From Candidatus Avoscillospira sp. LCP25S3_F1 (lineage in GTDB: Bacteria; Bacillota; Clostridia; Oscillospirales; Oscillospiraceae): a stretch of 24,000 nt of DNA. Under the pieces are notes generated by a model. The model searched no databases. It was not told the DNA's origin and was given only the letters and a program-made list of their open reading frames with translations. The position numbers and the translations under genes were made by a program. The stretch lies in the NCBI RefSeq assembly GCF_052117125.1, contig NZ_JBQKJT010000001.1:46684-70683 (forward strand). The letters are read 5' to 3'. This document shows, in pieces, positions 4,757-24,000 of this stretch (the first letter of the stretch is position 1; every line of letters starts with the position of its first letter).

Positions 4757-6478
<1,722 letters not shown>

Positions 6479-7131: not shown

Positions 7132-7374
7132 TCAAAACCGAAAATCCAAAATAGCGCGGATCAGCCGTGAGCGCAAACGGTCGTAAATATCCCGGTCAAT
7201 CCCGTAATATGTATTGCCGCGTTCGTCGCGGAGCTTGCGGATTGACAGGGCAGAGATTTGACGCTCATAATGCTGTAATACCAAGCCGATTGCTTCCGGG
7301 TCGCCTGCATTGGCAGCAACGATCAGCGGATAAGGCAGTAAACCGCGCTCGTCGTAATCACTGTTCATCTTCAT
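7132..7374 (-). CDS. helix-turn-helix protein of the conjugative-transposon regulatory type (80 aa)
   Basis: ATG 7374 is preceded by GGAGGA plus 8 nt and overlaps the end of the sigma gene. The sequence pattern IVAANAGDPEAIGLVLQHYERQI...LIRAILDF is paralogous to ORF 16295-16540. Confidence 0.65.
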   Translation of the reverse strand: MKMNSDYDERGLLPYPLIVAANAGDPEAIGLVLQHYERQISALSIRKLRDERGNTYYGIDRDIYDRLRSRLIRAILDFRF

Positions 7375-7936: not shown

Positions 7937-8123
7937 GATAAATACCTCCTGTCCGATTTGCGTAAACCAACGTGTCACGGACAGAAGCAGGCGGGGAACG
8001 ACAACGGGGATAGATTTGTAAAGCAGCAAAAGCAGCTTTATTTCAGCCCCCTAAACCGTTCGACAAATGGCGCAATTTTCGGTATTTTTCGTTCTGTTCC
8101 TCTTTCTCTCAACAATTTTCGCA

Positions 8124-8175
8124 GAACAAAAGAAAACGCCCGATTTAAGGTTTTTTCAACCTCAAATCGGGCGTT
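8124..8175 (-). terminator. rho-independent terminator (minus strand)
   Basis: 12-bp stem aacgcccgattt / aaatcgggcgtt (8135-8146 / 8164-8175), followed on the minus strand by ttttcttttg. Confidence 0.7.
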
Positions 8176-8284
8176 GCGTTTCCATATTCGATTGGGTGGA
8201 TTAGGACAGATAAAGAAATATTGCATAAAATTTCCCCTCCCTAAAAAATCCGTAGGTGGGGCAGCTTTTTAGCTATACCACCGG

Positions 8285-8325
8285 CAAAACAAAGAGGGCG
8301 GCGGGGCAAAATGCCTCGCCGCCCC
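8285..8325 (-). terminator. rho-independent terminator directly after the DGR target gene
   Basis: GC stem 8295-8306 / 8314-8325 (10 of 12 paired), followed on the minus strand by tctttgttttg. Confidence 0.6.
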
Positions 8326-8356
8326 TGCGGTTGTTACAAAACGAACTTGTTATGTG

Positions 8357-11300
8357 TTATACAAGCTGCGGTAAACTTTCTTCTTCCTTTTGCTCACGTC
8401 GTCGGATTACGGTCAATGCAACAATAGCAGCCAAGGAAAGAAGCATGGTAGAGAGCCAAAGTCCTATATTACTGCTGTCGCCGGTCTGCGGGCTGGAAAT
8501 GTGCTGTGTCCAGCCGCCACCGCTGCCGGTTCCGCCTGTGCCGCCATTCCCGCCGGGAACAACAGGCACAAGATTGTTTTTCTCAATGAAGTTTTGGAGC
8601 ATAGCCGCAATTTCAGCGCGGGTAGCGGTGCCTTTCGGGTCAAGTATTCCATTGCCCTTGCCGCTCATTACGCCGCTGCCAACTGCCCACTTCATAGCTT
8701 CCTGCGCCCAAGGGGACAAATCCCCGGCGTCTGTAAAGCCGGACAGGTCGCCGCTGGCGGTTGTGTCATAGCCCTTAAACTTCGCATAGTTGTAGAAAAT
8801 CACGGCAAGCTGTTCACGGGTCACAGGATCGCCCGGACCAAACAGGTTATCGCCATATCCCTGCATAATGCCGTTTTGCTGTACCCAAAGAACTGCGTCA
8901 TAGTACCAATCTGTACCCGGACCGTATGGCACATCGGTAAACGGGTTGGTATTCTCCACGGCGGGGCTTCCTGCCATGCGATAGAAAATCGTTGCAATCT
9001 GTGCGCGGGTGGTTGCGTCGTTCGGGGAGAATGTGGTTGCGCTGGTGCCGTTCATCAGGTTATTTTGGTAAACGAATATAACAGCTTCATAGAACCAATC
9101 GTCCGGGCGAACATCGGTAAACGGATTATTTACGCCGGTATCCGGGTTATCCTTTGCAAATACCGCTTCGATGGTGTGTTTCTTCTGCACGTCCTCAAAG
9201 GTGTAGCTTGTGACTGCGCCGACGCTCTTTCCATCTACCAGCACATCGGAAATGTGATAGCCGCTGTCCGGGGTAATGGTAAAGGTTTTGTCCGTATCTT
9301 CCCGGACGCTGACGCTGCCGGACGGAGAGATAGAGCCGCCCGTTCCTGCGCTGGCGGTAATGGTGTAATAGTCATAGCTGGAACCGCCGCCACCGCCGTT
9401 ATAACTCCAAGCTGCCGTTATCGTCGTATCGGCTGCGGGCATGGTAAAGGTGGTGCTTGCGCTGGAAGCGTCGGTAAAGGTGCCGCCGTTTGAGGAAGTC
9501 CAGCCGTTAAAGCGGTAATTGCTGCGGCTGCCCGCGTCAATATGGATAGCTTCGCCCGCGGGATATTCACCGCCGGTTGTGCTGCCGCTGCCGCCGTTCA
9601 GATTGACGGTAAGGGTATAGGTGTCAAGCACTTCAAAGGAGAGTTTCACGCTGGCGCTTGTGTTGTTGCTGCCGGAAATGGTAAGCGTTTCGGAATAGTC
9701 GCCCGCGCCAAGCCTGGTTTTGGGTTGGGCGGTAAAGCTCGCCGTACCATTTGGGGCAAGGGTGGCGGTATCATTCGTAAAGCCCTCTCCCGCTGTAATG
9801 ATGTAGTTCGTGCTGGTGGGCAGATCAACCGTTACAGTTTGGTTGCCGGTATTGGTAATGGTCACTTTTTTCGCGGCGGGGGCTTCCGTATAGCTCTCGG
9901 TGACGGTGCCAAAATCCCAGCTCTCTGTATCGGCGGAAATTGCATAGACCGGCGCGATATAGGCGGGTATGCTGATTTTCAGCACATCGCTGATATTCCC
10001 CGCCGCGTCTTGCACGACAACCGCCACATACTGGGTGTTTGCGGTGATACTGTCCAGCTCGATCTCGTTTTCTCCCGCCTTGCACGCCTGCTTGGTGTCC
10101 TGTGCGGCAATTTCCGCATTTGTCAGCGTGATTTCCGTATCCTGCGCGATATAGTAGCAGGTGCCTGCTTCGTCGCTGGTAAACTTCACCGTCGCGGTGG
10201 TGTCGCTGTCGCGGGTAGCCGAGCCATTGGAAAGCGTCGGGGCAGTGGTGTCATTTGAAACAGTAAGGCTAACCGTTTCAAACGCGCTGGCGTAATCGGT
10301 CAGTTTGGTATCGTCGTTTGCACCGCCGTTATATTGTTCGCTGAACACATTAAGGGTATAGGTTCCGTCTACAAGGGAAGTCGGAATTGTAATCTCCACT
10401 TGCCCCTCCGCACTCGTCGGCTGCGTAATTCTACCATAATATTGTGCGCCGCTATCGTCCGCAATAATGACGGAAATATATTCGTTGGGGGCGGTGTCAG
10501 CGTTATAGACCGTAGCCCCGGTGTAATTCAGCGTAATGGTATCGCCGGGCTTGCCGCTGGCGGTTTCTTCCGTTACGGAGAACTGGCGGCTGCTATCCAG
10601 CAAGGTCAGCTTCCATTCGCTGCCGTCATAATCGTCAATTTTAAAAATCGCGTCGGCGGCTTCGCCGCCTTGATTACCGCCGCCGTTGGCGGCGGGGATT
10701 TTGCCGCCTTCGGCGGCAGATGTGAAGAGGACAGAGTTCAGATCTAAATTAAAAGCGGGACGAGCAGCCCAGTCATAGGTCACGATGTAGTAGTACACAA
10801 TCCCATAAGTGAGGACCGCGCCCGCATAGTAGGTAATGAATGCGCCAGGCGAGCGGAGCCACCACACACCGGCGCTATTGCCATAATTGGCAATACGCGT
10901 ATTGTCATCGGTAAAACCGTATGCGCTGTTTTCCGCTTCCTCTGCCGAGAGGAAAAATACCTTGTCCCCGTTTAGGATATTTTCAGAGGCGGCAAATGGT
11001 ACGCTATATGTACTGCTGGTAAATGCTCCATCGCTTTTCGTGGTTGCAAGCACCGCGCCCTGCTCGCCCTCGGAAAAATTGCCGTTGTAAAAGGTTCTAC
11101 ACCAGTCCTGCGCCGTACTGCCTTGCCATACGTTGCTGCCGTTTCCGCTGTTATCAAAATACACATCTCCGAAACTGCCTGTTCCAAGCAGCGCGTCGGA
11201 GAGCAGGAAAAGGCCGCTTCCCCCGGTGTTGGTCTGGTCGTCCAAAACCCGCCATTTGATTGGGTTTTCCTCCCATGTCCCGAAATAGATGTTATCGGCC

Positions 11301-11452
11301 TGCCCGCCGCTGATATTGGCGGCAGTCCCGCTGTCCACAAGCTGTATCGCCTTGCCGGTATCTGTTCCCGCCGCAAAAGCGACCTGTGGCAAGAGCCCTG
11401 CCACAAGACAGATGGCAAGCAGTAAGCTGATTATTTTTCGTTTCGGTTTCAT
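8357..11452 (-). CDS. DGR target: secreted multidomain cell-surface protein (1031 aa) with SLH domains and a sortase signal
   Basis: ATG 11452 (GAAGGA upstream) gives the signal peptide [29 protein letters not shown]. The N-proximal module (IKWRVLDD...VFFLSAEEA...GVWWLRSP...[10 protein letters not shown]) contains the VR. An Ig-like region and a Listeria-Bacteroides-type repeat ([16 protein letters not shown]) follow. Three SLH repeats (FTDV..DW.Y.AV, about 8579-9131) come next. The C-terminus has SPQTG (8480-8494), a hydrophobic helix and an RRREQK tail. Confidence 0.9.
10655..10717 (-). promoter_or_regulatory. three short GC hairpins 38-100 nt downstream of the VR (possible DGR target-recognition structures)
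   Basis: ggcggc-ttc-gccgcc (10655-10669), ccgccgcc-gtt-ggcggcgg (10677-10695) and gccgcc-ttc-ggcggc (10703-10717). Confidence 0.45.
10755..10876 (-). repeat. DGR variable repeat (VR)
   Basis: 122 nt aligned without gaps to 12842-12963 (offset 2087). There are 21 mismatches, 18 of them at TR adenines on the coding (minus) strand. Confidence 0.9.
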
Positions 11453-11483
11453 TTTATGTCCTTCTGTCCTTTTCTTCACATCT

Positions 11484-12563
11484 TTATGCGTTTTCGGGCG
11501 TTTCACCCGGAACTGCCATTACTTCTCCTTTCGGGGCTTTTGTCAGTACAAACTTTCCATATATCTTCGCTTGCAGCTTCCATGTATGCCCATGCTGCAA
11601 ATGCCCGTCGTAGCTTGCAAGGCTGCGCTTGATTGCGTCAAAATCCATCTCCCCGCTGCGGTATTTCTCTTGAAAGGCTTTCAGCCGCCTCTTAAACCGC
11701 CGCTTATTGCTTGTCCGAAGCCGCCGTATGACCTTGCCCGTATCGGTCAGATAAAACCTCCAGCCGAGATAATCCACGCCCTCCGAAACGGGGAAAATCT
11801 GCGTTTTCTCGTTAAACTCAAGTTTCAGCTTTTCAGCCGCAAACGCCCGGATTTCCGCAAGGCAGGTTTTTAAGTGTTCTTTATCCTCATGCAGCAAAAT
11901 CAAATCGTCCATATACCGGGTATAGTATTTGATTTTGTACTTTTCCTTAATGATACGGTCTATCCGGTCAAGATAGTACAGGGCAAACCATTGGCTTGAC
12001 TGATTTCCCATCGGCAGCCCTTTTCCCGTATCGGCGTTAAAGCTGTCGATGACCTGATACAGAAACGTCAAAACCTCTTTATCGGGAAAACGCCGGAGTA
12101 AGTACTTCAATACGCCGTGGTCGATACTGTCAAAATATTTTCGCACGTCGCATTTCAGAAAATATCCCTTTGTGCCATGCTCTTTGTAAAACGCCTGTAA
12201 AAACCCTGTCAAACGTTTCATGGCAAAATGCGTCCCCTTATTTTCCCGGCAAGCCGCGCAATCGTAAATCAACCGTTTTTCAAAATACGGCTTCAATACG
12301 TTGTCGCATAGGCTGTGCTGCACCACACGTCCCCGAAAAGAGAGGGCTTGTATTTCCCGCTTCTTCGGGTCGTAAATCATAAAGCGGTGGTAGGGCGGCG
12401 TTTGATAGCGTCTGTTCTCCAACTCATCGTGCAGCTTCCAGAGGTTTTCCGCAAGGTTTAGTTCAAACTCGATCACTTCCCTTTTTGTACGCTTGCACCG
12501 CGCCGCCATTTTATATGCCCGGTACAGGTTTTCAAACTGATATATTTTCTCATACTCCGTCAT
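11484..12563 (-). CDS. DGR reverse transcriptase
   Basis: [54 protein letters not shown] (the DGR-type xGNxxSQ motif) and [14 protein letters not shown] 12563 is preceded by AAGGAG plus 10 nt. Upstream in-frame starts at 12614 and 12632 lack a ribosome-binding site. Confidence 0.9.
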
Positions 12564-12841
12564 GCGGACTATGCTCCTTATCTCACCGCCGGGAAAGAGC
12601 GTTTCAAAGGCCATAATGGGCTGCTCTTTCAAAGAAACCGAAAGCGTCCTGCCGGGCTTGCTCTGCCGCTTGCCCCGTTTGCGTCCGGCTGCTCCGGCGG
12701 CATGTGTTTTTCCGCGCTTTGCTTCTCCATGACACCCCTGCGCGAAAGGGAATAGGGTTCCTTTGCCTTATGCAAGCAAGCCTTTTTTCCGGCCTGCACG
12801 GGTATGACGCGCCTGCGGCATACTTCGGGCGATAAGGCGAC

Positions 12842-12963
12842 GCGGGACGAGCAGCCCAGTCATTGTTCACGTTGTTGTTGTTCACATTACCATTGTTGTT
12901 GACCGCGCCCGCATTGTTCGTATTGTTTGCGTTAGGCGAGCGGAGCCACCACACACCGGCGCT
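12842..12963 (-). repeat. DGR template repeat (TR)
   Basis: It contains 15 AAY codons (conceptual translation [41 protein letters not shown]). It lies 46 nt after avd and 278 nt before the RT start. Confidence 0.9.
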
Positions 12964-13009
12964 CAAAGTTTTTACAACCCTATCCCGTATATGATGAAAG
13001 CCTTTCGGC

Positions 13010-13399
13010 TTACACCCCCAGTCGTTTCCTGTCGCTGTTCAGCCATGCGCCCAGCATGTTCTGGCAGTCGTGGATTTTCTTTGTGATCTGCTCATACTGC
13101 TTTGGCAGTATGCAGCCCTGCTCCATAGATAGCTGCGCCATATAGCCCAATAGTTTCAATTCCGTCAAGGCTTGGTGCTGGAAGTCTATGCGCTGCTGCG
13201 CCTTTTCTCTGTCGCCCGCTTTGACAAACACCTCGTTTGCCCGGTACAGGTTTTCGATAATGTTCAGCGCGTAGTTTTGCAGCTTTGCAACAAGGGCAAA
13301 TCGGAAACGCTTTGGCGATTTATCCGTTACCGTCATCACATAGGAGCAGAGGTCTTTTGCTTTTGTGATAACCGCCAACTCGCTTTGATAAGCCGCCAT
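13010..13399 (-). CDS. avd: DGR accessory variability determinant (Avd-like four-helix-bundle protein, 129 aa)
   Basis: Size, predicted all-helical composition, a basic C-terminus (LGAWLNSDRKRLGV) and its position immediately 5' of the TR. AAGAGGA precedes the ATG at 13399. Confidence 0.75.
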   Translation of the reverse strand: MAAYQSELAVITKAKDLCSYVMTVTDKSPKRFRFALVAKLQNYALNIIENLYRANEVFVKAGDREKAQQRIDFQHQALTELKLLGYMAQLSMEQGCILPKQYEQITKKIHDCQNMLGAWLNSDRKRLGV

Positions 13400-13453
13400 G
13401 CTGATTCCTCTTTATACCTGTGTGGTTGAACTTTCCACAATTCTGCCATACGC

Positions 13454-13504
13454 AAAAAAGGCGCGTCACGCCTACGGCAAAGCCGTCGACGCAGCGCGCC
13501 TTTT
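13454..13504 (-). terminator. hairpin with flanking A/T runs upstream of avd (terminator-like on the minus strand)
   Basis: aaaaggcgcg (13456-13465) pairs with cgcgcctttt (13495-13504). The minus-strand reading ends in tttttt. Confidence 0.45.
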
Positions 13505-13550
13505 AACACGGTAATATTGAATTTTGAGCAGCACAAAAGGACAGACTTAT

Positions 13551-13612
<62 letters not shown>

Positions 13613-13864
13613 GTCAGTGTATTGCAAAGAAGCATTGCTTGTCAAGCCCCCTTTTCACGAAATCTTTCTGAAACGGTACCTTATGCACCCCCCGCTTTTG
13701 ATATAAAAATATAATATAAATTATATAGGAAAAGACCGCAAAAAGCAACACCATTCCCGAAAGGTTCACAAAATATTTCCCAAATCTGTAAGGTTCGCCC
13801 CTTTGGCAATTCCCGCCCCTGCGGTGTTGTAGAGAACAAAGGAAAAAGTTTCGTAGCAAGCATA

Positions 13865-13902
13865 GGAAAGGGGTACCCTTTCCGTATTTTCGCCCTCTGC
13901 GC
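13865..13902 (+). promoter_or_regulatory. candidate oriT (inverted repeat plus downstream GC-rich nick region)
   Basis: ggaaaggg-gta-ccctttcc (13865-13883) is followed by gtattttcgccctctgcgc, about 75 nt upstream of mobC. The layout resembles MOBQ-type oriTs (an IR, then ..GCGCCCT..). Confidence 0.35.
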
Positions 13903-13976
13903 TCTGCGGCGCGGCGGTTGAAAATTGCTTGTTGGGAAGCGTCCCAAACCCTCTAAGCAGAAAGGAGCGTCGGCGC

Positions 13977-14306
13977 ATGGACGGACGGAAAAGAACAGTG
14001 CAAATCAAATTTAGAGTAACCGAGGAAGAACGGGCATTGATTGAGGAAAAAATGAAGCTCGTCCCCACTCGGAACATGGAAGCCTATCTGCGGAAAATGG
14101 CAATCGACGGGTACATCATTCAGATAGATCATAGCGACATAAAGGCTATGACTGCGGAAATACAGAAAATCGGGGTCAATATCAATCAGATTGCAAAGCG
14201 CGTCAATGCGACGGGCAGCGTTTACCAAGAGGACATAGAGGAAATAAAGGGGGTGCTTGCGGAGATATGGCGGTTACAAAGATTAAACCTGTTAAAAGCA
14301 CGTTGA
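13977..14306 (+). CDS. mobC: MobC-family relaxosome accessory protein
   Basis: MDGRKRTVQIKFRVTEEERALIEEKMK...GVNINQIAKRVNATG is the MobC pattern. AAAGGAG plus 9 nt precedes ATG 13977. Confidence 0.8.
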   Translation: MDGRKRTVQIKFRVTEEERALIEEKMKLVPTRNMEAYLRKMAIDGYIIQIDHSDIKAMTAEIQKIGVNINQIAKRVNATGSVYQEDIEEIKGVLAEIWRLQRLNLLKAR

Positions 14307-15610
14307 GCAAAGCCCTTGACTATATCCAAAACCCGGACAAGACGGACGGGAAAATGCTGGTGTCCTCTTTTGGCTGCTCCTATGAAACGGCAGACATTGA
14401 GTTTGGATTTACCCTGTCGCAGGCTCTGGACAAGGGAAATAACCTCGCCCATCACTTGATACAATCCTTTGAGCCGGGGGAAGTCGATTATGAAAAAGCC
14501 CATGAGATCGGGCGGCAGCTTGCCGACGCGGTAACAAAGGGACAGCATGAATACGTTTTGACAACGCACATTGACAAGGGGCATATCCATAACCACATCA
14601 TTTTTTGCGCGGTCAACTTTGTAGATCACCACAAGTATGTTTCCAACAAGCGCAGTTATTACGGCATACGCAACATCAGTGACAGGCTGTGCCGGGAAAA
14701 CGGCTTGTCGGTGGTTGTGCCGGAGAAAGGCAGCAGGGGGAAAAATTATGCCGCATACCACAAGGAGAAATCCGCAAAGGCAAAACTAAAGATTGCCGTT
14801 GATACCCTTATCCCGCAAGTAAGCAGCTTTGAGGAATTGCTATCCCGCCTGCAAGGGTTGGGCTATGAGATAAAGCGCGGAAAATATATGTCCTGCCTTG
14901 TACCAGGGCAGGAACGGTTTACCCGCTTAAAAACCATTGGCGCAGACTACACCGAGGAAGCAATCCGGGAACGGATAGAGGGCAAGCGTACCCATGCGGC
15001 AAAAGCCCCGAAAACAGATCGGGGCGTCAGCCTGCTTATTGACATTGAGAATAATATCAAGGCGGCGCAGAGCCGGGGCTATGAGCAATGGGCGAAAATC
15101 TACAATCTGAAACAGGCGGCAAAAACGTACAACTTCCTCACGGCGCATGGGATTGAACAGTATGCGGATTTGACCGCCAAAATTGCGGAAGTCCAAGTGG
15201 CAAGCGAACAGGCAGCAGCCACACTAAAAGACGTGGAAACAAGGCTTTCCGATATGGCGGTACTTATCAAGAATACTACCACCTATCAAAAGACAAAGCC
15301 TGCCTATGACGCATACCGCAAGGCAAAGAATAAGGGCAGCTACCGGGCAGCCCATGAGCGCGAAATTATTTTGCATGAAGCAGCAGCAAAGGCACTAAAG
15401 GCGGCGGGCGTTTCCAAACTTCCCGATGTTGCCGCGCTGCAAGCGGAATATGTCAAACTGCAAGAGCAAAAAGAAGCCCTGTACGCCGAGTATGGCAAGC
15501 GCAAAAAACAGGTCAGGGAATACGACGTTATCAAGCGGAATGTTGACAGCTACTTGCGTCTGAACCGGGAGCCGGACAAAGAAAAGGAAAAGGACGAACA
15601 GCACTTATAG
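14267..15610 (+). CDS. relaxase / mobilization nuclease (MobA/VirD2-type)
   Basis: N-terminal Y-containing region ALDYIQNPDKT, the histidine triad THIDKGHIHNHIIF, and a long coiled C-terminal half. Confidence 0.9.
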   Translation: MAVTKIKPVKSTLSKALDYIQNPDKTDGKMLVSSFGCSYETADIEFGFTLSQALDKGNNLAHHLIQSFEPGEVDYEKAHEIGRQLADAVTKGQHEYVLTTHIDKGHIHNHIIFCAVNFVDHHKYVSNKRSYYGIRNISDRLCRENGLSVVVPEKGSRGKNYAAYHKEKSAKAKLKIAVDTLIPQVSSFEELLSRLQGLGYEIKRGKYMSCLVPGQERFTRLKTIGADYTEEAIRERIEGKRTHAAKAPKTDRGVSLLIDIENNIKAAQSRGYEQWAKIYNLKQAAKTYNFLTAHGIEQYADLTAKIAEVQVASEQAAATLKDVETRLSDMAVLIKNTTTYQKTKPAYDAYRKAKNKGSYRAAHEREIILHEAAAKALKAAGVSKLPDVAALQAEYVKLQEQKEALYAEYGKRKKQVREYDVIKRNVDSYLRLNREPDKEKEKDEQHL

Positions 15611-15850
15611 CTCAAATGGGTTAATGCCCGCGTCTACATGGGTTGCTATGTAGGTTATCACTTCTTCGGGGGTTGGGACTTCTCCCTTGCAAGGTATCTT
15701 TTTCCAGCGTTCTTGAACTGCGGGGTCTGGATTACACATACCCGCCAACATTGCTATTTTGATATGGTCGCGGATATATTTCACGCTTTTACCCTCCCGC
15801 AAAGCAATCATCTGTATTGCCCGTTCTGCGTCAATTTTTTTCTTTTTCAT
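15605..15850 (-). CDS. small hypothetical protein (81 aa)
   Basis: ORF track with ATG 15850 chosen (MKKKKIDAERAIQMIALREGKSVKYIRDHIKIAM..). It faintly resembles Spo0A C-terminal-like DNA-binding proteins of mobile elements; this is not secure. Confidence 0.45.
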   Translation of the reverse strand: MKKKKIDAERAIQMIALREGKSVKYIRDHIKIAMLAGMCNPDPAVQERWKKIPCKGEVPTPEEVITYIATHVDAGINPFEL

Positions 15851-15883
15851 AATACAAAATCGCCTTTCCATATTTTTTAGAAC

Positions 15884-15955
15884 TGACATTTAGTGAATGT
15901 CAATGCCAACATAATTTTAGCATATACTTTTTTCTGTGACAATCACTAAATGTCA
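15884..15955. promoter_or_regulatory. pair of 19-bp operator-like sites in a divergent promoter region
   Basis: tgacatttagtgaatgtca (15884-15902) and tgacaatcactaaatgtca (15937-15955) are reverse complements of each other at 18/19 positions. Each has TGACA-N9-TGTCA symmetry. Confidence 0.45.
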
Positions 15956-15970
15956 AACAGGAGAGCCGAT

Positions 15971-16219
15971 ATGTATAAGAACAAAGCAAAAGACGGAAAG
16001 AACAACATCAGCGGACGAAAGATAAAAGCCTTTCGGGAAGCTATGGCTACCAAGCCATCACAAAAGGAATTGGCTGATCTGCTGCAAATTGCAGGGCTGG
16101 ACGTTGATAAGAACGCCATACAGCGAATTGAAAGCGGACAGAGGTTTGTGACAGACATTGAATTAAGAGTAATCGCAAAGGTCTTAAATGTCAGTTATGA
16201 AGATTTGCTTGACGAATAA
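15971..16219 (+). CDS. XRE-family HTH transcriptional regulator
   Basis: ISGRKIKAFREAMATKPSQKELADLLQIAGLDVDKNAIQRIESGQRFVTDIEL. CAGGAG precedes ATG 15971. Confidence 0.8.
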   Translation: MYKNKAKDGKNNISGRKIKAFREAMATKPSQKELADLLQIAGLDVDKNAIQRIESGQRFVTDIELRVIAKVLNVSYEDLLDE

Positions 16220-16294
16220 GGGCATAAAGACATGGCTTTTTTGCCCCGCTTGTGCTATGCTTATCCTATCTTGAAAAGCAAGGAGTGATAAGGC

Positions 16295-16540
16295 GTGGCG
16301 GGAGAAAAGTTACTTGATCTTGAAACGATAAAAGCCGCTGTTGCCGGTGAGAAGTGGGCGGTACAAAAGGTCATTGAGCATTATTCCGACGAGATAGACC
16401 GTGAAAGTACCGTGAACGTCGAGCAGCCGGACGGAAGCATAAAAAAAGAGCTTGACGAGGATTTACGTCAAGCCATTATCTTAAAACTGATAGAAGCAAT
16501 CCCACAATTCCCGCTTTCCAATGGGCAGTACAAAGAATAG
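16295..16540 (+). CDS. helix-turn-helix protein of the conjugative-transposon regulatory type (81 aa)
   Basis: GTG 16295 is preceded by AAGGAG plus 9 nt. IKAAVAGEKWAVQKVIEHYSDEI...LKLIEAIPQF is paralogous to 7132-7374. Confidence 0.6.
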   Translation: MAGEKLLDLETIKAAVAGEKWAVQKVIEHYSDEIDRESTVNVEQPDGSIKKELDEDLRQAIILKLIEAIPQFPLSNGQYKE

Positions 16541-16580
16541 TGCGTAACGGTCAAACAGACCGTCACGCACTATTCTTTTT
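16539..16580. terminator. bidirectional terminator between convergent genes
   Basis: agtgcgtaacggtc-aaaca-gaccgtcacgcact (one mismatch), then attcttttt. It overlaps both stop codons. Confidence 0.7.
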
Positions 16581-16926
16581 GTCTTAATTTCGCGTCCTTG
16601 CGGATCGCGTCTTTCGCGGCTTTTAACAGGTCAGATAATATGCGTATCTCGTAATCGTCACAATCGGCAACAATCGTCTGTATCTCCTGTGAAAAAATCT
16701 CTTTGGAGCGAATGACGTTATCGCAGAGAAATTCATCGACGGAAACAGAAAGGGCATTTGCCAACGCAATAATCATCGGCAAACTAAGTTTTGAGCTGCC
16801 GGTTTCAATGTTGCTCATGTGGGTAGTGGAAAGCCCCGCCATTTCCGCTAATGCTTCTTGTGTTAAGTCTGCCTTTATCCGCGCAATTTTTATTCGTTTT
16901 CCTATCGCCTTGTAGTCTAATTCCAT
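16570..16926 (-). CDS. XRE-family HTH transcriptional regulator
   Basis: IGKRIKIARIKADLTQEALAEMAGLSTTHMSNIETGSSKLSLPMIIALANALSVSVDEFL. GAGGA plus 9 nt precedes ATG 16926. Confidence 0.85.
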   Translation of the reverse strand: MELDYKAIGKRIKIARIKADLTQEALAEMAGLSTTHMSNIETGSSKLSLPMIIALANALSVSVDEFLCDNVIRSKEIFSQEIQTIVADCDDYEIRILSDLLKAAKDAIRKDAKLRQKE

Positions 16927-17095
16927 ACGCAAAAGTCCTCACATCATATTCATTCCCTACACCTCCATATTGTAAATTAACCAGCTTCCATATATAATAA
17001 ACTGTATAAAGGAAACATTTACTTGTTTTATTTTTATAAAACATAATTTTATAACATGGGCTGATTGCTATTTTTTATGAACTGGTGGGAATATT

Positions 17096-17566
17096 GTGGT
17101 AACTTGTACTTTTGCGGGGCATAGAGAAATTTTCGGTATGAGAGATACGGAAATCATCGAGATATTGGAAAAGCTGCTGGAAAACGAAACGGATATGACG
17201 TGCTATGTCGGGGCTATGGGAGAATTTGACGCGCTGTGTGCAGGCGCGGTACGTTCTCTAAAGCAGCGGCACAAGGACAAGAACATTGCGCTTGTTATGG
17301 TGCTTCCCTATATGCAGCAAAAAATCAACGAATACCGGGAATACTACGAAACTGCCTATGATGAAATACTGATACCCATAGAATTAGCAGAAGTCCACTA
17401 CAAACAGGCAATTCCCGCCCGTAACAGGTGGCTTGTCGATCACTCGGATTATCTGATTGCCTGTGTTTGGCGGGATTTTGGGGGTGCTTATAATACACTC
17501 AAATATGCAAAGAAACAGCACAAAAAAATATTCTTGATAGAACGCAATAAAACCGGGGCGCAGTAG
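17096..17566 (+). CDS. SLOG-superfamily protein (DUF1273 / YpsA-like)
   Basis: CTFAGHREI..., GAMGEFDALCAGAV, LVMVLPY, ARNRWLVDHSDYLIACV. This motif order is typical of the YpsA/DUF1273 family. Confidence 0.7.
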   Translation: MVTCTFAGHREIFGMRDTEIIEILEKLLENETDMTCYVGAMGEFDALCAGAVRSLKQRHKDKNIALVMVLPYMQQKINEYREYYETAYDEILIPIELAEVHYKQAIPARNRWLVDHSDYLIACVWRDFGGAYNTLKYAKKQHKKIFLIERNKTGAQ

Positions 17567-17598
17567 CCAATCAATGACTACCACGCCCCGGCTTTTCT
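17553..17598 (+). terminator. rho-independent terminator after the SLOG gene
   Basis: ccggggcg (17553-17560) pairs with cgccccgg (17584-17591), with an inner gtag/ctac pair, followed by cttttct. Confidence 0.6.
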
Positions 17599-17940
17599 AT
17601 GGGTGCAGTCTGGAAGTGTTACGCAGTAAAACGCTGTTTTTGGGGGAACAGGTATAAAGTCCTTGCCCTATCGCCGGATTTTCCCCCACTTCACACCGGA
17701 CGTGCGACTTTCACCGCATCCGGCGTTCCATCGATTGTTTTCACAAGCATTTAATCAATCTCCAAATGAAATACTATTATCGCCGATGGGTTTTATGTCC
17801 CGGATCGGCCCCCCAAGGCTCCGAAAGCCCAAAATGGCGGATTCCTGAAAAAACTGAAACCACAACAGAAGGTCCAACCCGCTCCGGGAAAACATCGGGT
17901 ATAGCAGACTACTACCCTCTCATAGATTGCCTATTGGGAG

Positions 17941-18153
17941 GTGTGTGGTATCAGCAGAAAAAGCGCTCCGCTCCATGTGATTGTCCATGCTCCAAATACA
18001 GAAGCCGGACAGCAGGAGCTGGCAAAACGTGTTGCCGGTGTCCATGCCGATCTGGTCCATCGCTACATACAAACGCTGCCTTGTCCCTCAGAGGAAAAAG
18101 CAGCGTTATTGGATGCCGTTATTGCAACCGTAAAAAAGAGCGCAGGGGATTGA
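17941..18153 (+). CDS. conserved small protein, copy 2 (70 aa from GTG)
   Basis: Paralogue of 3343-3555. The whole block 17853-18184 is about 85-90% identical to 3254-3578, including upstream sequence. Confidence 0.6.
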   Translation: MCGISRKSAPLHVIVHAPNTEAGQQELAKRVAGVHADLVHRYIQTLPCPSEEKAALLDAVIATVKKSAGD

Positions 18154-18184
18154 ACCCGTCAGGGTTTGATCCCCTGCGCTTTTC
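18139..18184 (+). terminator. rho-independent terminator overlapping the small-ORF stop
   Basis: 12-bp stem agcgcaggggat / atcccctgcgct with an inner aaccc/gggtt pair, followed by tttcat. Confidence 0.7.
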
Positions 18185-18490
18185 ATCAGAAAACAGCTCC
18201 TTCAGGTCTGTTGGTCAACTGGCACTGGTATCGCGCCCCAGCTCTTTTTTTCGTTGTAATTACAACATACAGTTTGCAACTTATCCGATACAATAAACTC
18301 GGAAACAAACATGGGGCAGCGTCAAAGACACCTTGTTCGCTGCTGCCTTCGGAACAGGCTCGGTGACGCAAACGCTGCGCCGTATTTGCAAATCCACTAC
18401 CGATACGACGCTTTGCATAACCATTTTGGGCCTGTATCAGTGAAGGTTAAACCATAAACTATTACTATCACACAACAGGAGGTTCGTTTT

Positions 18491-18823
18491 ATGAACGCTA
18501 AAATGAAAAATATCAGTCAGGCAGAGGTTCTGGTCCTGAAGGATCAAATTGCCTACCAGGACGGCCAGGTGGTCAGCAAGACGTTGGCCCAGAACAATGC
18601 GTTGAGCATTACCCTGTTCTCCTTTGCCAAGGGTGAGGAGATCAGCACGCACGAGTCCGGCGGCGACGCCTTTGTCACCTGCCTGGACGGCGTCGGCAAG
18701 ATCACCATTGACGGCGTGGACTATCTGCTCCATGAAGGCGAATCCATTGTGATGCCCGCCGGGCATCCTCACGCCGTATACGGCGAAGAAGCCTTTAAAA
18801 TGATGCTGGTTGTTGTATTTTAA
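18491..18823 (+). CDS. cupin-domain protein (110 aa)
   Basis: GEEISTHESGGDAFVTCLDGVGKITIDGVDYLLHEGESIVMPAGHPHAV is the two-motif cupin signature. AGGAGG plus 8 nt precedes the ATG. Confidence 0.8.
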   Translation: MNAKMKNISQAEVLVLKDQIAYQDGQVVSKTLAQNNALSITLFSFAKGEEISTHESGGDAFVTCLDGVGKITIDGVDYLLHEGESIVMPAGHPHAVYGEEAFKMMLVVVF

Positions 18824-18995
18824 AAGGTCCATGGAGCGGGCAGCACTGTCAAAGTCCTGCTGTATCTGGGTGTTGCCTGATCGTTTTTCCTATGGCGTTT
18901 TCTGAGACAAGGTATGACACAATCCTCTTCGTATGATCTCTGCGTTATGATATACTTGCAGCAATCTATCACATGCGAGCAAAGGAGGATGAACG

Positions 18996-20816
18996 ATGCC
19001 CAACGAGTCAGATGCCATTGCCCTCTATTCCCGCAAGTCCCGGTTTACCGGCAAGGGCGAGAGCATTGGCAATCAGGTGGAGCTATGTAAAGAATATGTG
19101 CGGCTGCACTTTGGAGAGCAGGCCGCGGAACAGCTGGTTATCTACGAAGACGAAGGGTTTTCCGGCGGCAATTTGAACCGTCCGGCCTTCCGGCGCATGA
19201 TGGAAGCGGCCCGGCAGCGGAAGTTCCAAGCCATCATTGTCTACCGTCTCGACCGCATCAGCCGCAATGTCAGCGACTTTTCCGGCCTCATTGAAGAATT
19301 GTCTCGGTTGAATGTTTCCTTTATTTCCATCAAGGAGCAATTCGATACCAGCACCCCCATGGGCCGGGCCATGATGTACATTGCCTCTGTCTTTTCCCAG
19401 CTGGAGCGGGAAACCATTGCCGAACGCATTCGGGACAACATGCAGGAATTAGCCAAAACCGGCCGCTGGTTAGGCGGTACCACCCCCACCGGCTATGCCT
19501 CCGAAGCCGTCAAAAGCGTGACGGTGGACGGCAAAACGAAAAAGGCCTGCAAGTTAAAGTTGATTCCCGAAGAAGCGGAAATCATCAAAACCATTTTTGA
19601 CCTGTATCTGGAAACGGATTCTCTGACCATCACCGAAGCTCGGCTGATGCAGCGTGGAATTCAGACGAAAAGGGGCAATCATTTCACCCGCTTTTCTATC
19701 AAGTCCATTTTGCAGAACCCTGTCTATCTGATCGCCGACCAGGAGGCTTATGATTTCTTTCAGCAGCATGAAACGGACCTGTTTTCTGAGCAGAGCGAGT
19801 TTGACGGTATCCACGGCATAATGGCCTACAACCGTACCGACCAGGAAAAGGGTCGGGCCACCATCTATCTGCCTCCCAGCGACTGGATTGTGTCCGTGGG
19901 CAAGCATCCAGGGTTGATTCCCGGCAAGGCCTGGGTCGCCGTTCAAGAGTCTCTGGAGCGAAACAAATCGAAAGCCTTCCGCAAGCCCCGCAGCAATGAA
20001 GCGCTGCTGACAGGTCTGCTCTATTGCCGCTGCGGCGAACGGATGTACCCCAAGGTCAGCAAGCGGAAAACCGCCAACGGCAGCCCCGTCTATACCTATG
20101 TGTGCAAGTTGAAAGAGCGCAGCCAGCGCGCCCTCTGCAACAACAAAAATGCCAGTGGCAATCTGCTGGACCAGGCCGTTCTGGATCAGCTGAAGCTGCT
20201 CCAGGAGGATCAAGATACGTTTCTCGCCCAGTTGGAACAGAGCCGCAAATTCTACACCGGCAACCGTATGGACTACGAGCAGCGGCTGGATGCCCTGCGG
20301 GGAGAAAAACGTGACCTGGAAAAGAAGCTGGACGCTTTGGTGGATTCCCTGGCAGACCTGGCCGAGTCCGCTGCCCGCGGTCAGGTGTCCCGGCGTATCG
20401 AATCCCTCAGCAGCCAGTGCGACGATCTGGGTAAACGGATTCAGGAGTTGGAGGGGTTGACCTCCCAGCATGCCCTCAGTGATCTGGAGTTTGATCTCCT
20501 GCGGCAGCTGCTGGCTGTTTTCCGGGACGGCATGCAGGAAATGTCCCTGGAGCAGAAACGGGCTGCGGTTCGCACCGTGGTACGCAAAGTGGTCTGGGAT
20601 GGCATCCACGCCCATGTGGTACTGTTTGGCGTGCCGGATGATGAGATTGAATACCCGCCGTTCCCCTCCGACGGTTCTGACCCGGACGGCAACGATACCG
20701 ATGGCGAAACTGACGAACCTTCCACCTGCTCCGATGATGACTACGCAGAAAATCCATCGAATCCCGATGACTCCACCGACGGTACAAAAGCGCATTGGGG
20801 CGGGAATAGCAAATGA
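18996..20816 (+). CDS. large serine recombinase adjoining the sigK fragment (SpoIVCA-like role inferred)
   Basis: IALYSRKSRFTGKGESIGNQ, YRLDRISRNVSDF, the recombinase domain, zinc-ribbon CRCGERMY...YVCKLK...CNN, a coiled coil and an acidic tail. AAAGGAGG precedes the ATG. The stop codon lies inside sigK-homologous DNA. Confidence 0.9.
   Translation: MPNESDAIALYSRKSRFTGKGESIGNQVELCKEYVRLHFGEQAAEQLVIYEDEGFSGGNLNRPAFRRMMEAARQRKFQAIIVYRLDRISRNVSDFSGLIEELSRLNVSFISIKEQFDTSTPMGRAMMYIASVFSQLERETIAERIRDNMQELAKTGRWLGGTTPTGYASEAVKSVTVDGKTKKACKLKLIPEEAEIIKTIFDLYLETDSLTITEARLMQRGIQTKRGNHFTRFSIKSILQNPVYLIADQEAYDFFQQHETDLFSEQSEFDGIHGIMAYNRTDQEKGRATIYLPPSDWIVSVGKHPGLIPGKAWVAVQESLERNKSKAFRKPRSNEALLTGLLYCRCGERMYPKVSKRKTANGSPVYTYVCKLKERSQRALCNNKNASGNLLDQAVLDQLKLLQEDQDTFLAQLEQSRKFYTGNRMDYEQRLDALRGEKRDLEKKLDALVDSLADLAESAARGQVSRRIESLSSQCDDLGKRIQELEGLTSQHALSDLEFDLLRQLLAVFRDGMQEMSLEQKRAAVRTVVRKVVWDGIHAHVVLFGVPDDEIEYPPFPSDGSDPDGNDTDGETDEPSTCSDDDYAENPSNPDDSTDGTKAHWGGNSK
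19021..19174 (+). repeat. direct repeat, right copy (partner 4541-4694)
   Basis: See the left copy. Here the repeat is part of the intact recombinase gene. Confidence 0.95.
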
Positions 20817-21171
20817 AATCCTGATGCACTTTCGCAGCCAGAAAAAGTCCAGCGGCGACGTATCTCTGTCCGATTACATAGAAACGGGCAAGGACGGCAA
20901 CGCTCTTTCTCTGATGGACGTCATCTGCACCGATGATGATCTATTCGAGGACCTCAGCGCCCGGGAGAATGCCGCACGGCTCCACCGGGCCATGAAAGAG
21001 GTCCTGACGGACCGGGAATTGCTGGTGGTCCAGCTTCGGTATGGGCTGGGTGGCCGTAAACCCCTGACCCAGCGGGAGGTGGCCCAGCAATGCGGCATTT
21101 CCCGGTCCTATATCTCCCGCATTGAGAAAAAGGCCCTGCAAAAGCTGGAAGCAGCGTTCCGGGATTCCTGA
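20806..21171 (+). CDS. sigK: 3' segment of a split sporulation sigma factor K gene (spoIIIC-like); no start codon of its own
   Basis: IANEILMHFRSQKKSSGDVSLSDYIETGKDGNALSLMDVICTDDD...RELLVVQLRYGLGGRKPLTQREVAQQCGISRSYISRIEKKALQKL aligns with sigma-K regions 3-4 (B. subtilis [41 protein letters not shown]...[27 protein letters not shown]). Regions 1-2 are absent. Confidence 0.75.
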   Translation: MANEILMHFRSQKKSSGDVSLSDYIETGKDGNALSLMDVICTDDDLFEDLSARENAARLHRAMKEVLTDRELLVVQLRYGLGGRKPLTQREVAQQCGISRSYISRIEKKALQKLEAAFRDS

Positions 21172-21403: not shown

Positions 21404-21610
21404 ATGCCATCGAAACGACTGGCCGCCGTAGACAGCGGCCGCTGTGTGGCCTGCGGCAGCTGCTGTAAGGTCTGTCCCAAGGGAGCCGTCACCGTCTGGC
21501 GCGGCGTCTCCGCCGTAGTGGATGGTACGCTGTGCATCGGCTGCGGCAAGTGTCAAAAAGAATGCCCCGCCGGGGCCATCGTCCTCAACAACCGGGAGGC
21601 CGCCGTATGA
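21404..21610 (+). CDS. 2x[4Fe-4S] ferredoxin (68 aa)
   Basis: CVACGSCCKVCP and CIGCGKCQKECP cluster motifs. GGAGGA plus 7 nt precedes ATG 21404. Confidence 0.85.
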   Translation: MPSKRLAAVDSGRCVACGSCCKVCPKGAVTVWRGVSAVVDGTLCIGCGKCQKECPAGAIVLNNREAAV

Positions 21611-22248
21611 ACAAGACAAAACACTGGTACGACTATCTATGGATTGTGACGCCCGTCTATTTCGCCCTGGGCTTCTTCAACATCCTCTTTGCCTGGATCG
21701 GTATGATCTTCTTCTGTCTCCCCCTGTTCATCGCCATTTTCGGCGGCAGCAAACTCTACTGCAATCGCTACTGTGATCGGGGACAATTCTTCACCCTCCT
21801 GGGCAAAAAACTTCATCTGTCCCGCAACGTCCCCACCCCCCGCTGGATTGGCTCCAAATGGTTCCGGTATGGATTTCTGATTTTCTTCTTCGCCATGTTC
21901 TTCCAGATGCTCTGGGTGACGTATCTGGTGGGCGCCGGCGCCAACTCCGTCAGCGCCGCCGTCAAACTGTTCTGGACCTTCCGGGTGCCCTGGGACTGGG
22001 CCTATCACGGCACCGTCTTCGCCCCCTGGGTCGCCCAATTCGCCTTTGGCTTCTACGGTATGATGCTGACCTCCACCCTCATCGGTCTCATCGTCATGGT
22101 TCTGTTCCAGCCCCGCTCCTGGTGCGTCTTCTGCCCCATGGGTACCATGACCCAATGGATCTGCAAGCTGCGGGCCGGAAAAACACCGCCCCCCGCCTGC
22201 TCCGGCAGCTGCGCTTCCTGTTCCCGGGAGGGCTGCGGCCATGGCTGA
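21607..22248 (+). CDS. polytopic membrane protein with Cys motifs (4Fe-4S-binding membrane protein family-like)
   Basis: The ATG overlaps the ferredoxin stop (ATGA). It has several hydrophobic helices, CNRYCDRG and SWCVFCPMGT motifs, and the Cys-rich tail ACSGSCASCSREGCGHG. Confidence 0.7.
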   Translation: MNKTKHWYDYLWIVTPVYFALGFFNILFAWIGMIFFCLPLFIAIFGGSKLYCNRYCDRGQFFTLLGKKLHLSRNVPTPRWIGSKWFRYGFLIFFFAMFFQMLWVTYLVGAGANSVSAAVKLFWTFRVPWDWAYHGTVFAPWVAQFAFGFYGMMLTSTLIGLIVMVLFQPRSWCVFCPMGTMTQWICKLRAGKTPPPACSGSCASCSREGCGHG

Positions 22249-22531
22249 ATTGCAGGAACAGGCCAAAGCCGTGGCGGCCCTTCTGGGACAACTGGCCAAT
22301 GAAAACCGGCTGTTGATTCTCTGCGCCCTGCTGGAAGGACCCAAAACCGTGGGCCAGCTGGGCGAGGCCGTCCCCCACATCACCGGTCCGGCCCTGTCCC
22401 AACACCTGCAAAAGCTCCGGGCGGCGGGTCTGGTGGATGGCACCAAACACGGCCAGTTTGTGGAATACCAGATTGCCGACCAGCGGCTGTACGGCCTGAT
22501 GGAACGGCTGAAAGCCCTGTATTGCGCCTAA
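22241..22531 (+). CDS. ArsR/SmtB-family metalloregulator
   Basis: LGQLANENRLLILCALLEGPKTVGQLGEAVPHITGPALSQHLQKLRAAGLV is a winged HTH with the LxxxxRLxIL motif. It overlaps the upstream gene by 8 nt. Confidence 0.9.
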   Translation: MAELQEQAKAVAALLGQLANENRLLILCALLEGPKTVGQLGEAVPHITGPALSQHLQKLRAAGLVDGTKHGQFVEYQIADQRLYGLMERLKALYCA

Positions 22532-22537
22532 AAAAAC

Positions 22538-22579
22538 ACGCCCGCAGGCGTGCCGAATCATCGGTACGCCTGCGGGCGT
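22538..22579. terminator. bidirectional rho-independent terminator
   Basis: Perfect 14-bp stem acgcccgcaggcgt / acgcctgcgggcgt, with an A-run before and a T-run after, between convergent genes. Confidence 0.85.
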
Positions 22580-22609
22580 TTTTCTGGAACGTTTTCCGTC
22601 AAAAATCGT

Positions 22610-23548
22610 CTATGGTTCTGAAAGCGGCTCCAAGACCGTCTGGGCATACAGATCCGCCACATCGTCCATGGTCACCGGCGCACCGCCGGTACAGGCCGCA
22701 TGGGCCATACTGACCGCCACGGCCCGGCGGGCCGTCTCCTGCCACGCCGTCCCCTGCTCCAGGTCCCACAGGACGCTGGCCAGCAGCGCATCGGCCGCGC
22801 CGCGGGCCGCAGACGCCTCCAGAATGGGGCCGCAGACGTGAAAGCTCTCCCCTGCCGTGACAAACAGTGCCTCCCGGTGGCTCAAGGTCACCACCACCCG
22901 TTCCACACCGTTGGCCGCCACGGTACGGGCTGCCGCTGCCAGGGCTTCCCGGTCCGGCAGTTCCTTCTCACACAGCGCCTCCAACTGGGCCCGGTCGGGC
23001 CGGATGACCGTGGGACCGGCGGCCACACCGATTTTCATGGCCATACCCGCCGTATCCAACGCCGTCCGGATGCCCCGGTCCCGCAGGACTGTAATCCAGT
23101 CGGCCAACTGATGGTCCGTGACGCCGGCGGGATTCTTTCCGGCAAACACCACTGTATCCCCAAGCCGGACCTGTTCCTCCAGCTTTTCCCACAGTTCCTG
23201 GAGGTTCTCCGTCGTCACCGGCTGTCCCGGCTCCAGAATCCGGGTACAGGTGTCGTTGTCCGGGTCCAGAATGGTGAGATTGGTCCGGGTTTCATTGGCG
23301 GTAAAGGTGAAGTCATTGGGGATGCCCAGCATATCCAACTGGTCGCGAATCCAGTCTCCTGCCGCACCGCCGATCAGGCCCATGGCCACGGTACGGGCCC
23401 CCAAGCCCTGGAGCACTCTGGATATCTGGATTCCCTGCCCTCCCGGCGACTGCCGGGAACGCTCCGTCAGGCCCACACTGTCCACCTCAAAGTCCCGCAC
23501 CACCGAGACTTTATCCAGGGCCGGATGCAACGTTACCGTAAAAATCAT
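22610..23548 (-). CDS. PfkB-family sugar-phosphate kinase (1-phosphofructokinase / tagatose-6-phosphate kinase type)
   Basis: MIFTVTLHPALDK..., PGGQGIQISRVL, the DTAG region and a C-terminal GAADALLAS motif. Length is 312 aa. Confidence 0.9.
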   Translation of the reverse strand: MIFTVTLHPALDKVSVVRDFEVDSVGLTERSRQSPGGQGIQISRVLQGLGARTVAMGLIGGAAGDWIRDQLDMLGIPNDFTFTANETRTNLTILDPDNDTCTRILEPGQPVTTENLQELWEKLEEQVRLGDTVVFAGKNPAGVTDHQLADWITVLRDRGIRTALDTAGMAMKIGVAAGPTVIRPDRAQLEALCEKELPDREALAAAARTVAANGVERVVVTLSHREALFVTAGESFHVCGPILEASAARGAADALLASVLWDLEQGTAWQETARRAVAVSMAHAACTGGAPVTMDDVADLYAQTVLEPLSEP

Positions 23549-23773
23549 ACTGACTTCTCCTGTTTCTTTTACTGTCTACCATTATAATCCCTTTTCCCCA
23601 AAATGTAAATGAAAATCCCATCCTTTGGCGCCATCCCCGGAAACTGGCCGCATTGTTTCCACATTCTTAACATTTCCCCGGCAAAACCGTATTTACACCA
23701 CCCGGCAATCGTGGTATGATAGAGCGTAACGGTTTTTCGACCGAAACCGACAACAGTTGATTGGAGTGACATC

Positions 23774-24000
23774 TTGAGTCAGGTGAAGCTATTTGGCGGC
23801 AAAAGCAGACGGGCCGCCCCCCAGTCCTCCGCCCCTCGGGCGCGGAACAAGAAACAGCGCTCGCCGCTGAAACTCATTACGGTGATCCTTACCATTTTGG
23901 CCGTGCTGGAGTGCGGCTATTTCGTCTGCGTCTATTCCAACATTCCCTTTATTGCCAAGTGGCGGGAAATCTACATTCAGACGGCCATGGACACCATGAG
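23774..24000 (+). CDS. partial membrane-anchored protein (N-terminal 75 codons, continues past the window end)
   Basis: Open frame from TTG 23774 (GGAG 8 nt upstream; alternative GTG 23783). It has a basic N-terminus, then the helix LKLITVILTILAVLECGYFVCVY. Confidence 0.45.
   Translation, partial: MSQVKLFGGKSRRAAPQSSAPRARNKKQRSPLKLITVILTILAVLECGYFVCVYSNIPFIAKWREIYIQTAMDTM

Follow-up and report, generated by a model that had tools for sequence, protein, structure and literature searches.

Skin elements, which split sigK, a gene for a sigma factor of sporulation, in two, have been documented in Bacillus subtilis, Clostridioides difficile, Clostridium tetani, the Clostridium perfringens phage phiS63 and, in the Galperin et al. 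2022 preprint, 15 reference genomes. According to that preprint, the 15 elements span 2.6–48 kb and share only a large serine recombinase (LSR), whose gene always lies at an edge and usually directly upstream of the sigK 3' fragment. In B. subtilis, the recombinase SpoIVCA acts with the 64-aa Skr, which is under sigma-E (PMC6957869), and in C. difficile the LSR CD1231 acts with the 72-aa CD1234, which is controlled by sigma-E/SpoIIID (PMC5025042). The inserts of phiS63, C. difficile (skinCd) and C. tetani (skinCt) lie near nt 427 of sigK (PMC3442830), and a conjugative element nested in the skin of one C. difficile strain (PMC3158075) provides a precedent for nesting. The window analysed here, a stretch of 24,000 nucleotides from Candidatus Avoscillospira sp. 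LCP25S3_F1 (contig NZ_JBQKJT010000001.1, positions 46,684 to 70,683), contains the 3' part of a sigK gene with an LSR gene directly upstream. The locus is probably a sigK-intervening (skin-type) element in a spore-forming member of the Oscillospiraceae close to Candidatus Avoscillospira, the excision of which in the mother cell would restore sigK. The mechanism itself is textbook and a single locus adds little to it; the family-level survey adds more.

Like skinCd of C. difficile 630, the window element is a non-phage-like island that splits sigK, with an LSR gene co-oriented with sigK and an accessory gene of about 70 aa (here named ORF70) behind a sigma-E-type promoter, recognised in the window as a motif match. 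The two differ in site (near nt 427 in skinCd, nt 330–334 in the window) and in cargo, ORF70 has no detected similarity to anything known, and the SigK of the window has an N-terminal pro-sequence-like segment, unlike that of C. difficile. Excision of the window element is predicted from sequence. With the B. subtilis element (skinBs) it shares a sigK in two parts, rejoined (by prediction, in the window) by an LSR, a pro-sigma-K-type N-terminus and a short attachment (att) core, 5 nt in B. subtilis and a shared spacer of 4–5 nt in the window; the small recombination directionality factor (RDF) under sigma-E in skinBs has a candidate counterpart in ORF70. SkinBs is, in contrast, a 48-kb defective prophage and not a mobilizable island, and spoIVCA has been published as opposite to sigK in orientation, whereas the window LSR is co-oriented with the 3' part and abuts it. 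The element fits the general description in the Galperin et al. 2022 preprint, a survey of reference genomes; the recurrence in Oscillospiraceae species genomes and the minimal element described below come from our own survey.

The insertion site, as placed by sequence comparison, differs from those of the B. subtilis group, phiS63, skinCd and skinCt, in agreement with the first-pass annotation, which had been made from the letters of the window alone and had put the interruption at a codon unlike those of B. subtilis and C. difficile. The B. subtilis group splits sigK after about residue 163, and the window element does so at the equivalent of residue 113. A common site with the B. subtilis skin was considered, the core AATGA being present in both the ENEIL and the GNEIS codons, and was rejected because the 5' halves of the B. 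subtilis group reach ..DTIQL. The differing attB positions argue for recruitment of the window LSR independently of the SpoIVCA/CD1231 lineage.

The same annotation had proposed a split sigK with an adjoining, co-oriented recombinase, and this was borne out by Pfam and PHROG matches of the LSR and by NCBIfam matches of the SigK 3' part. The frame at 20806–21171 matched positions 111–229 of 235 of one SigK model at 128 bits and positions 109–226 of 227 of a second, with the best SigE model at 97 bits, about 30 bits below SigK. In tblastn with B. subtilis pro-sigma-K (sequence checked against P0245), residues 111–228 were matched and residues 1–110 had no match on either strand of the window, as expected from the earlier statement that no coding sequence for sigma regions 1–2 is present there. 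The junction was aligned among the window, ten other split loci and the intact sigK of Candidatus Avoscillospira avistercoris (L002), a sister species and the closest relative with an intact gene. DNA identical to sigK begins at 20811 (AAATGAAATCCTG..), the frame being re-entered at AAT (20812), and the bases to the left (..TTGGGGCGGGAATAGC) are element sequence, kept in the split loci as TTGGGGnGAGGATAGC. The fragment had originally been drawn at 20806–21171; its identity as a SigK-type 3' part held, its start did not, since the codons ATA GCA (I A) at 20806 are part of the element P arm, GGGAATAGC. The sigK 3' part (+ strand), with the end of region 2.4 and regions 3 and 4 through the stop, thus occupies 20811–21171, and the gene is broken after the N codon in ..ARCVEN/EILMH.., codon 111 of 229, at nt 330–334.

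When the N-terminal half of the L002 SigK was used as query, the matches were almost all truncated, with more than 100 of the best 120 ending in VEN/A(I/M/T)L(S/T). One truncated SigK protein (P0004) is encoded on Logan contig L081 of sample SRR33888784, positions 14760–18126 of which, up to its end, are identical (100%) to window positions 1–3367; two further contigs of this sample, L165 and L183, match window positions 18090–19058 and 4665–6905 exactly. The sigK 5' part lies at L081 10001–10334, 4.4 kb left of window position 1. This position, together with the overlap of L081 with the window, gives an insert of about 25.24 kb, consistent with the lower bound of at least 20.8 kb given earlier, and the leftward extension thereby delivered both the sigK 5' half and the attL that had been expected at the far end. 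The two sigK parts are co-oriented and flank a single insert. In L002, the DNA upstream of sigK is collinear with L081 and that downstream with the window, so that this locus represents the empty site. Joining attL and attR in silico restored the reading frame, as had been foreseen, yielding an in-frame SigK of 229 aa with a DNA junction equal to the intact one of L002 and no nonsense or frameshift changes.

Both halves of the gene appear to be maintained. The 3' part is 97–98% identical at the amino acid level to those of L002 and of L001, a second split allele, and the ratio of synonymous to nonsynonymous codon differences was 9:1 for the 5' half and 26:2 for the 3' half against L002, and 22:2 for the 3' half between the window and L001. 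Such strong purifying selection on both halves argues against a decaying relic. The SigK N-terminus has a hydrophobic, pro-sequence-like segment before FPKPLS, and spoIIGA (Peptidase_U4) and a sigE-like gene are found on L081, 9 kb upstream.

The recombinase gene (18996–20816, + strand) encodes an intact LSR of 606 aa with the Pfam domains Resolvase, Recombinase and Zn_ribbon_recom in that order, a PHROG integrase match (E = 5e-117), the nucleophile-serine motif YSRKS at residues 11–15 and weak matches to coiled-coil families at residues ~405–500. It thus combines a catalytic domain with the nucleophile serine, a recombinase domain, a zinc ribbon and a coiled-coil-like region, and the solved structures nearest to it are those of TP901-1 integrase and SPbeta SprA (PDB). 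An exact look-up of the 606-aa sequence returned no record, and the junction sequence was not found in viral contigs. In role the LSR may be SpoIVCA-like, with developmental excision as its predicted function. The LSR gene closes the insert on the right, where its 3' end doubles as the att P arm. The first-pass annotation had placed its last three or so codons and the stop in sigK-homologous DNA; the stop codon indeed lies there, but only one codon precedes it (AAA TGA, 20811–20816), and the last two bases of the TGA (20814–20816) are supplied by sigK.

From the junctions, attR (20802–20826) was delimited as the P arm GGGAATAGC (20802–20810), the spacer AAAT (20811–20814) and the sigK B' arm GAAATCCTGATG (also given as GAAATCCTG), and attL (L081 10330–10334) as GTGTGTGGA-AAAT-GCTATCCTATCGCC, with the P' arm also given as GCTATCCTA. 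The corresponding attB is GTGTGTGGA-AAAT-GAAATCCTGATG, and the junction k-mers are GTGTGTGGAAAATGAAATCCTGATGCAC for attB and GGGAATAGCAAATGCTATCCTATCGCC for attP. A relative, L186, holds the attP form, GAGGATAGC-AAAT-GCTATCCTC, in which a perfect 9-bp dyad surrounds AAAT. On the basis of this dyad the crossover would be placed at the central AA of AAAT. The attL, which belongs to one sub-element of the insert (A), and the attR, which belongs to another (B), are presumably compatible.

In the predicted circle, where the P arm is joined through AAAT to the P' arm of attL, the TGA becomes TGC and the LSR frame reads into an XRE-type helix–turn–helix (HTH), giving an open reading frame (ORF) of 812 aa; the earlier suggestion that excision would change the C-terminus of the recombinase is thereby supported in silico. 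An attP form with such an in-frame LSR-HTH ORF is present at L186 5246–7123 (- strand), inside a contig of 437 kb. Its product is 60% identical to the predicted fusion over 209 residues past the junction, and its LSR lacks the coiled coil. Since the two elements are related, the fusion in L186 does not count as independent evidence. In temperate mycobacteriophages, attP lies inside the repressor gene and integration by tyrosine integrases truncates the repressor. The window element is similar in that attP lies inside an ORF whose protein end differs between the integrated and excised states; the protein concerned in the window is, however, the LSR itself, a serine recombinase.

A candidate for the factor that sets the direction of the reaction is ORF70, which is present in two copies on the + strand: copy B (17941–18153, 70 aa) and copy A (3343–3555), 90% identical to it in amino acid sequence. 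Each lies within one of the insert's two copies of a 333-bp segment, which is also found in L001. The ORF70 family comprises 103 homolog clusters of about 74 aa, and homologs in L184–L191, L001, L070 and L075 belong to elements that split sigK, where they adjoin attL or the LSR gene; the complete minimal element in L188 consists of ORF74, an AAA ATPase gene and an LSR gene only. In the predicted structure (pLDDT, the predicted local distance difference test, of 76), a helical hairpin is combined with an N-terminal segment that is conserved but disordered (..PINVIVH..). The structure gave no significant PDB fold match, nor did the sequence match Pfam or PHROG.

A sigma-E-like promoter motif, ATAGCAGAC-N12-CATAGATT (17901–17928, + strand), precedes copy B and is followed by the ribosome-binding site GGGAGG; copy A has the same motif at 3302–3329. 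The arrangement ATA-N17-CATAGAyT followed by GGGAGG has a fixed spacing in nine sequences from diverged ORF70 subfamilies, and in 38.8 kb the motif was counted 4 times, where 0.5 would be expected. The sigma-E consensus consists of ATA, 16–18 nt and CATACA-T, and the ORF70 motif fits it better than that of sigma-K, a sigma-K-type promoter being rejected on spacing. The motif (ATAGnGGAC..CATAxAxT) is also found at 6686 and 6765 (- strand), upstream of the tnpW and recombinase genes of a nested element described below, so that either the nested recombinase is under the same sigma factor as ORF70 or the motif has another meaning. We infer from gene position and promoter that ORF70 may be the RDF of the sigK elements. 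By analogy, it would parallel CD1234 (72 aa) and Skr (64 aa) and would agree with RDFs that add a strand to the zinc-ribbon domain, as most reportedly do. In that case, a compact LSR whose attP is perfectly symmetric would have a new directionality factor, which would be of interest for recombinase tools.

Excision of the insert is likely to be developmental, and its occurrence in the sporulating mother cell is suggested indirectly by the purifying selection on both sigK halves and by the sigma-E-like motif ahead of ORF70. A small factor, most likely ORF70 expressed from its sigma-E-type promoter, would switch the LSR to excision in the mother cell, whereupon attL and attR would cross over within the AAAT spacer, at its central AA, releasing the insert as a circle and restoring an in-frame sigK for a 229-aa pro-sigma-K. 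The forespore chromosome would retain the element. The defence systems, toxin–antitoxin (TA) pairs and the nested element with its diversity-generating retroelement (DGR) would be shed from the mother cell and inherited through the spore.

The insert itself is composite, being made up of a DruE-like helicase gene, a RelB/YafQ pair, the dead 5' stub of an LSR gene and, inside that stub, a mobilizable element with a DGR. The stub (4516–4694, + strand) is what the nested element has left of a second sigK-type LSR gene, namely its first 179 nt, and is 98.75% identical to 19015–19174. The insert contains two direct repeats, one of 333 bp (3254–3586 and 17853–18184, 88.6% identity) and one of 160 bp (4535–4694 and 19015–19174, 98.75%), the last 146 bp of which are identical; together they explain the contig breaks in short-read data of the same sample. 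An internal half att site at 17764–17790, with AAATG (17764–17768), AAAT (17769–17772) and ACTATTATCGCCGATGGG, is a second copy of the left (P') arm of the element, 88% identical to the attL-proximal 78 bp on L081; the arm on its left resembles neither the P arm nor the B arm of sigK. Between this half site and the right end of the nested element lie 92 nt (17672–17763) with no homolog among the fetched loci.

The duplicated module, consisting of P' arm, ORF70, cargo and LSR nt 1–179, can be read as accretion of two related sigK elements followed by deletion, as recombination through the 160-bp repeat, or as an assembly choice. In the last case, the segment order would be an artefact created through the repeat in the LSR 5' end, and the true state would be a simple sigK element of 10.76 kb plus a 14.48-kb segment (window 4695–19174) present as a circle or at another locus. 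The near identity of the repeat copies and the fact that the short-read contigs break exactly at the repeats speak for this; the window, for its part, asserts one connectivity, which is not decisive, and we consider an artefact unlikely. Whichever resolution is right, the LSR and the two att sites stay the same and so does the split in sigK, a conclusion that none of the three readings affects.

The recurrence of the arrangement was surveyed in the 80 GTDB species-representative genomes with sigK 3' halves closest to that of the window, all from Oscillospiraceae or near relatives. An interruption of sigK at exactly the base seen in the window was present in 29 of them (36%), accompanied by the P arm G(A/G)TAGC(A/G)AA(T/C)GA and, where the contig allows, by a homologous LSR; in the other 51 the gene was intact. 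Cultured carriers include Clostridium viride DSM 6836, Flintibacter porci, F. faecis and Flavonifractor sp. An306. The family is made up of non-phage islands that are mobilizable, have this sigK site as their attB and bring with them various cargo, some of it defence-type. Since roughly one in three of the gut Oscillospiraceae species genomes sampled carries an element at one identical sigK base, developmental DNA rearrangement may be routine in uncultured gut spore-formers, and annotation pipelines will mislabel the split sigK as missing or broken. In some close relatives (L162–L164, P0123–P0133) sigK is in three pieces, where a second insert, an integrative and conjugative element (ICE) with ParA/ParB, a VirD4-type coupling protein, Maff2, TrbL and its own recombinase, follows ..GISRSYIS in region 4.2, in addition to the LSR element at ENEIL.

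The same data bear on the possibility that the element is an ordinary mobilizable island for which sigK is simply the attB, with sigK inactivated or the host asporogenous and excision serving horizontal transfer. Genes for relaxases and for replication or partition are present in members of the family. Pfam and PHROG scans of the ORFs gave no capsid, terminase, tail or lysis genes and no sporulation genes in the cargo; what did turn up were relaxases, defence-type genes, a TA pair and a DGR. Some Oscillospiraceae have been described as non-spore-forming, and the timing of excision is itself a prediction from comparison of loci. Carriage at a single base in 36% of the sampled species genomes is, however, hard to reconcile with the loss of an essential sporulation gene, and the selection on both sigK halves, seen even between two split alleles, the conserved sigma-E-like promoter ahead of a conserved small gene and the presence of spoIIGA and sigE likewise argue against this explanation, which we hold to be quite unlikely. 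It is very unlikely that the insert is a locked composite, in which the nested element has destroyed the left LSR, the LSR that survives cannot excise 25 kb with a foreign attL and sigK is a recent pseudogene: the LSR stub at 4516–4694, the absence of the reconstituted SigK from the record and the P' arms that differ beside the spacer (GCTATCCTA in sub-element A, ACTATTATC in B) would fit it, but both P' arms are equally good inverted matches to the surviving P arm (reverse complement GCTATTCCC), the LSR is of full length with its coiled-coil region, and sigK is free of nonsense and frameshift changes.

Several observations nevertheless weigh against a developmentally excised skin-type element. 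Excision has been read from comparison of loci, and the genome may hold a second, intact sigK elsewhere. The reconstituted SigK of this strain was absent from a collection of 15 billion proteins, in which only the intact protein of the sister species was present. AttL belongs to one sub-element and attR to another, with about 88% identity in the segments that the two have in common, the internal half att site is not accounted for by the scheme, and the order of the segments depends on the 160-bp repeat with its identical last 146 bp. For ORF70, similarity to known RDFs was not detected with Pfam, PHROG or PDB fold searches, and its promoter was called as a consensus match to a motif that also precedes the nested recombinase.

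If the skin-type interpretation is carried further, the Oscillospiraceae elements could form a distinct and very common family of mobilizable islands, defined by their own attB at the ENEIL codons of sigK, by a common, previously undescribed sigma-E-driven directionality factor of 70–74 aa and by an attP inside the recombinase ORF. In the integrated state the recombinase would then be cut short by a stop codon that sigK completes; after excision it would be fused in frame to an XRE-type HTH. The resulting isoform, dependent on the state of the element, could render excision in the mother cell one-way or regulate re-integration. This proposal is doubtful as a whole. A possible second layer to it is that a family of mobilizable elements with a DUF4368 LSR inserts into the conserved DDGxSGxNF codons of the recombinase genes of other elements, disabling skin-type excision and selecting for rescue by a second element.

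The nested integrative mobilizable element (4695–17671, 12.98 kb) was delimited exactly from identical copies elsewhere, its genes being assigned with Pfam. It encodes a DUF4368 LSR (4757–6433, - strand), a sigma-like and an HTH_16 regulator (7132–8029, - strand), a MobA/VirD2 relaxase (14267–15610, + strand) and, at its right end, a SLOG/DprA-like protein of 156 aa (17096–17566, + strand), which recurs without any sequence change in 63 blocks of the public collection, usually beside the conjugation genes of larger ICEs. Its DGR (8357–13399, - strand) has the order Avd (13010–13399), template repeat (TR; 12842–12963), reverse transcriptase (11484–12632) and target, an SLH/DUF6273 gene (8357–11506) with the variable repeat (VR) at 10755–10876. 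All TR/VR mismatches within the repeat fall at TR adenines, as in a genuine DGR. The VR is located in the N-terminal DUF6273 domain, not the C-terminus, of the 1049-aa SLH-anchored surface protein.

Relatives of the nested element were gathered as 69 metagenome copies with an LSR 85–100% identical (L082–L161, L176–L183). The LSR-proximal end adjoined the first ~60 codons of another LSR gene in 58 of them, the target gene differing from copy to copy, with flanks ending ..DDG(Y/F/W)SG(T/A/G)NF, and copies with an identical recombinase occupied different LSR genes. The nested family therefore appears to target the recombinase genes of other mobile elements. DUF4368 LSRs are a known multi-targeting clade, and a shallow literature search found no paper naming recombinase genes as their target. 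One idea was that the interrupted LSR gene continues in the right flank of the nested element, but none of three contexts supported it.

The helicase, TA pair and nested DGR-bearing element listed as cargo in the first-pass annotation were all confirmed. From the left end, the insert carries an XRE HTH gene (L081 10462–10953) as the first element gene, an Abi_alpha/DUF2806 gene (L081 11086–11994, - strand) and a gene for a DruE-like (Druantia) DEAD/MZB helicase of 1619 aa (PADLOC DruE1, 608 bits), which runs on the - strand from L081 12098 to 16957, equivalent to window 2198. Window positions 1–2198 hold its N-terminal 732 codons, the gene continuing to the left. No other Druantia component was recognised beside the helicase and Abi_alpha/DUF2806 genes, so that this is perhaps defence cargo of unusual composition. 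Three small genes of unknown function follow at about 2195–3180 (- strand), and then the TA pair (3780–4354, - strand), composed of a YafQ/ParE toxin (3780–4070; Pfam YafQ_toxin, 5e-37) and a RelB antitoxin (4067–4354; RelB, 2e-12); in L162 a RelB/YafQ pair likewise precedes the LSR. A Cupin_2 gene (18491–18823, + strand; Pfam 5e-13) lies between ORF70 copy B and the LSR gene. The ORFs at 17766–18296 (176 aa), 492–971, 1050–1799 and 3801–4475 were rejected as genes because they are read in alternate frames of, or antisense to, ORF70, the helicase gene and the TA pair. The G+C content is 43–55% over the insert (window 1–20000) as against 60–65% in the right flank of sigK (21500–24000), a contrast that fits a foreign origin of the insert.

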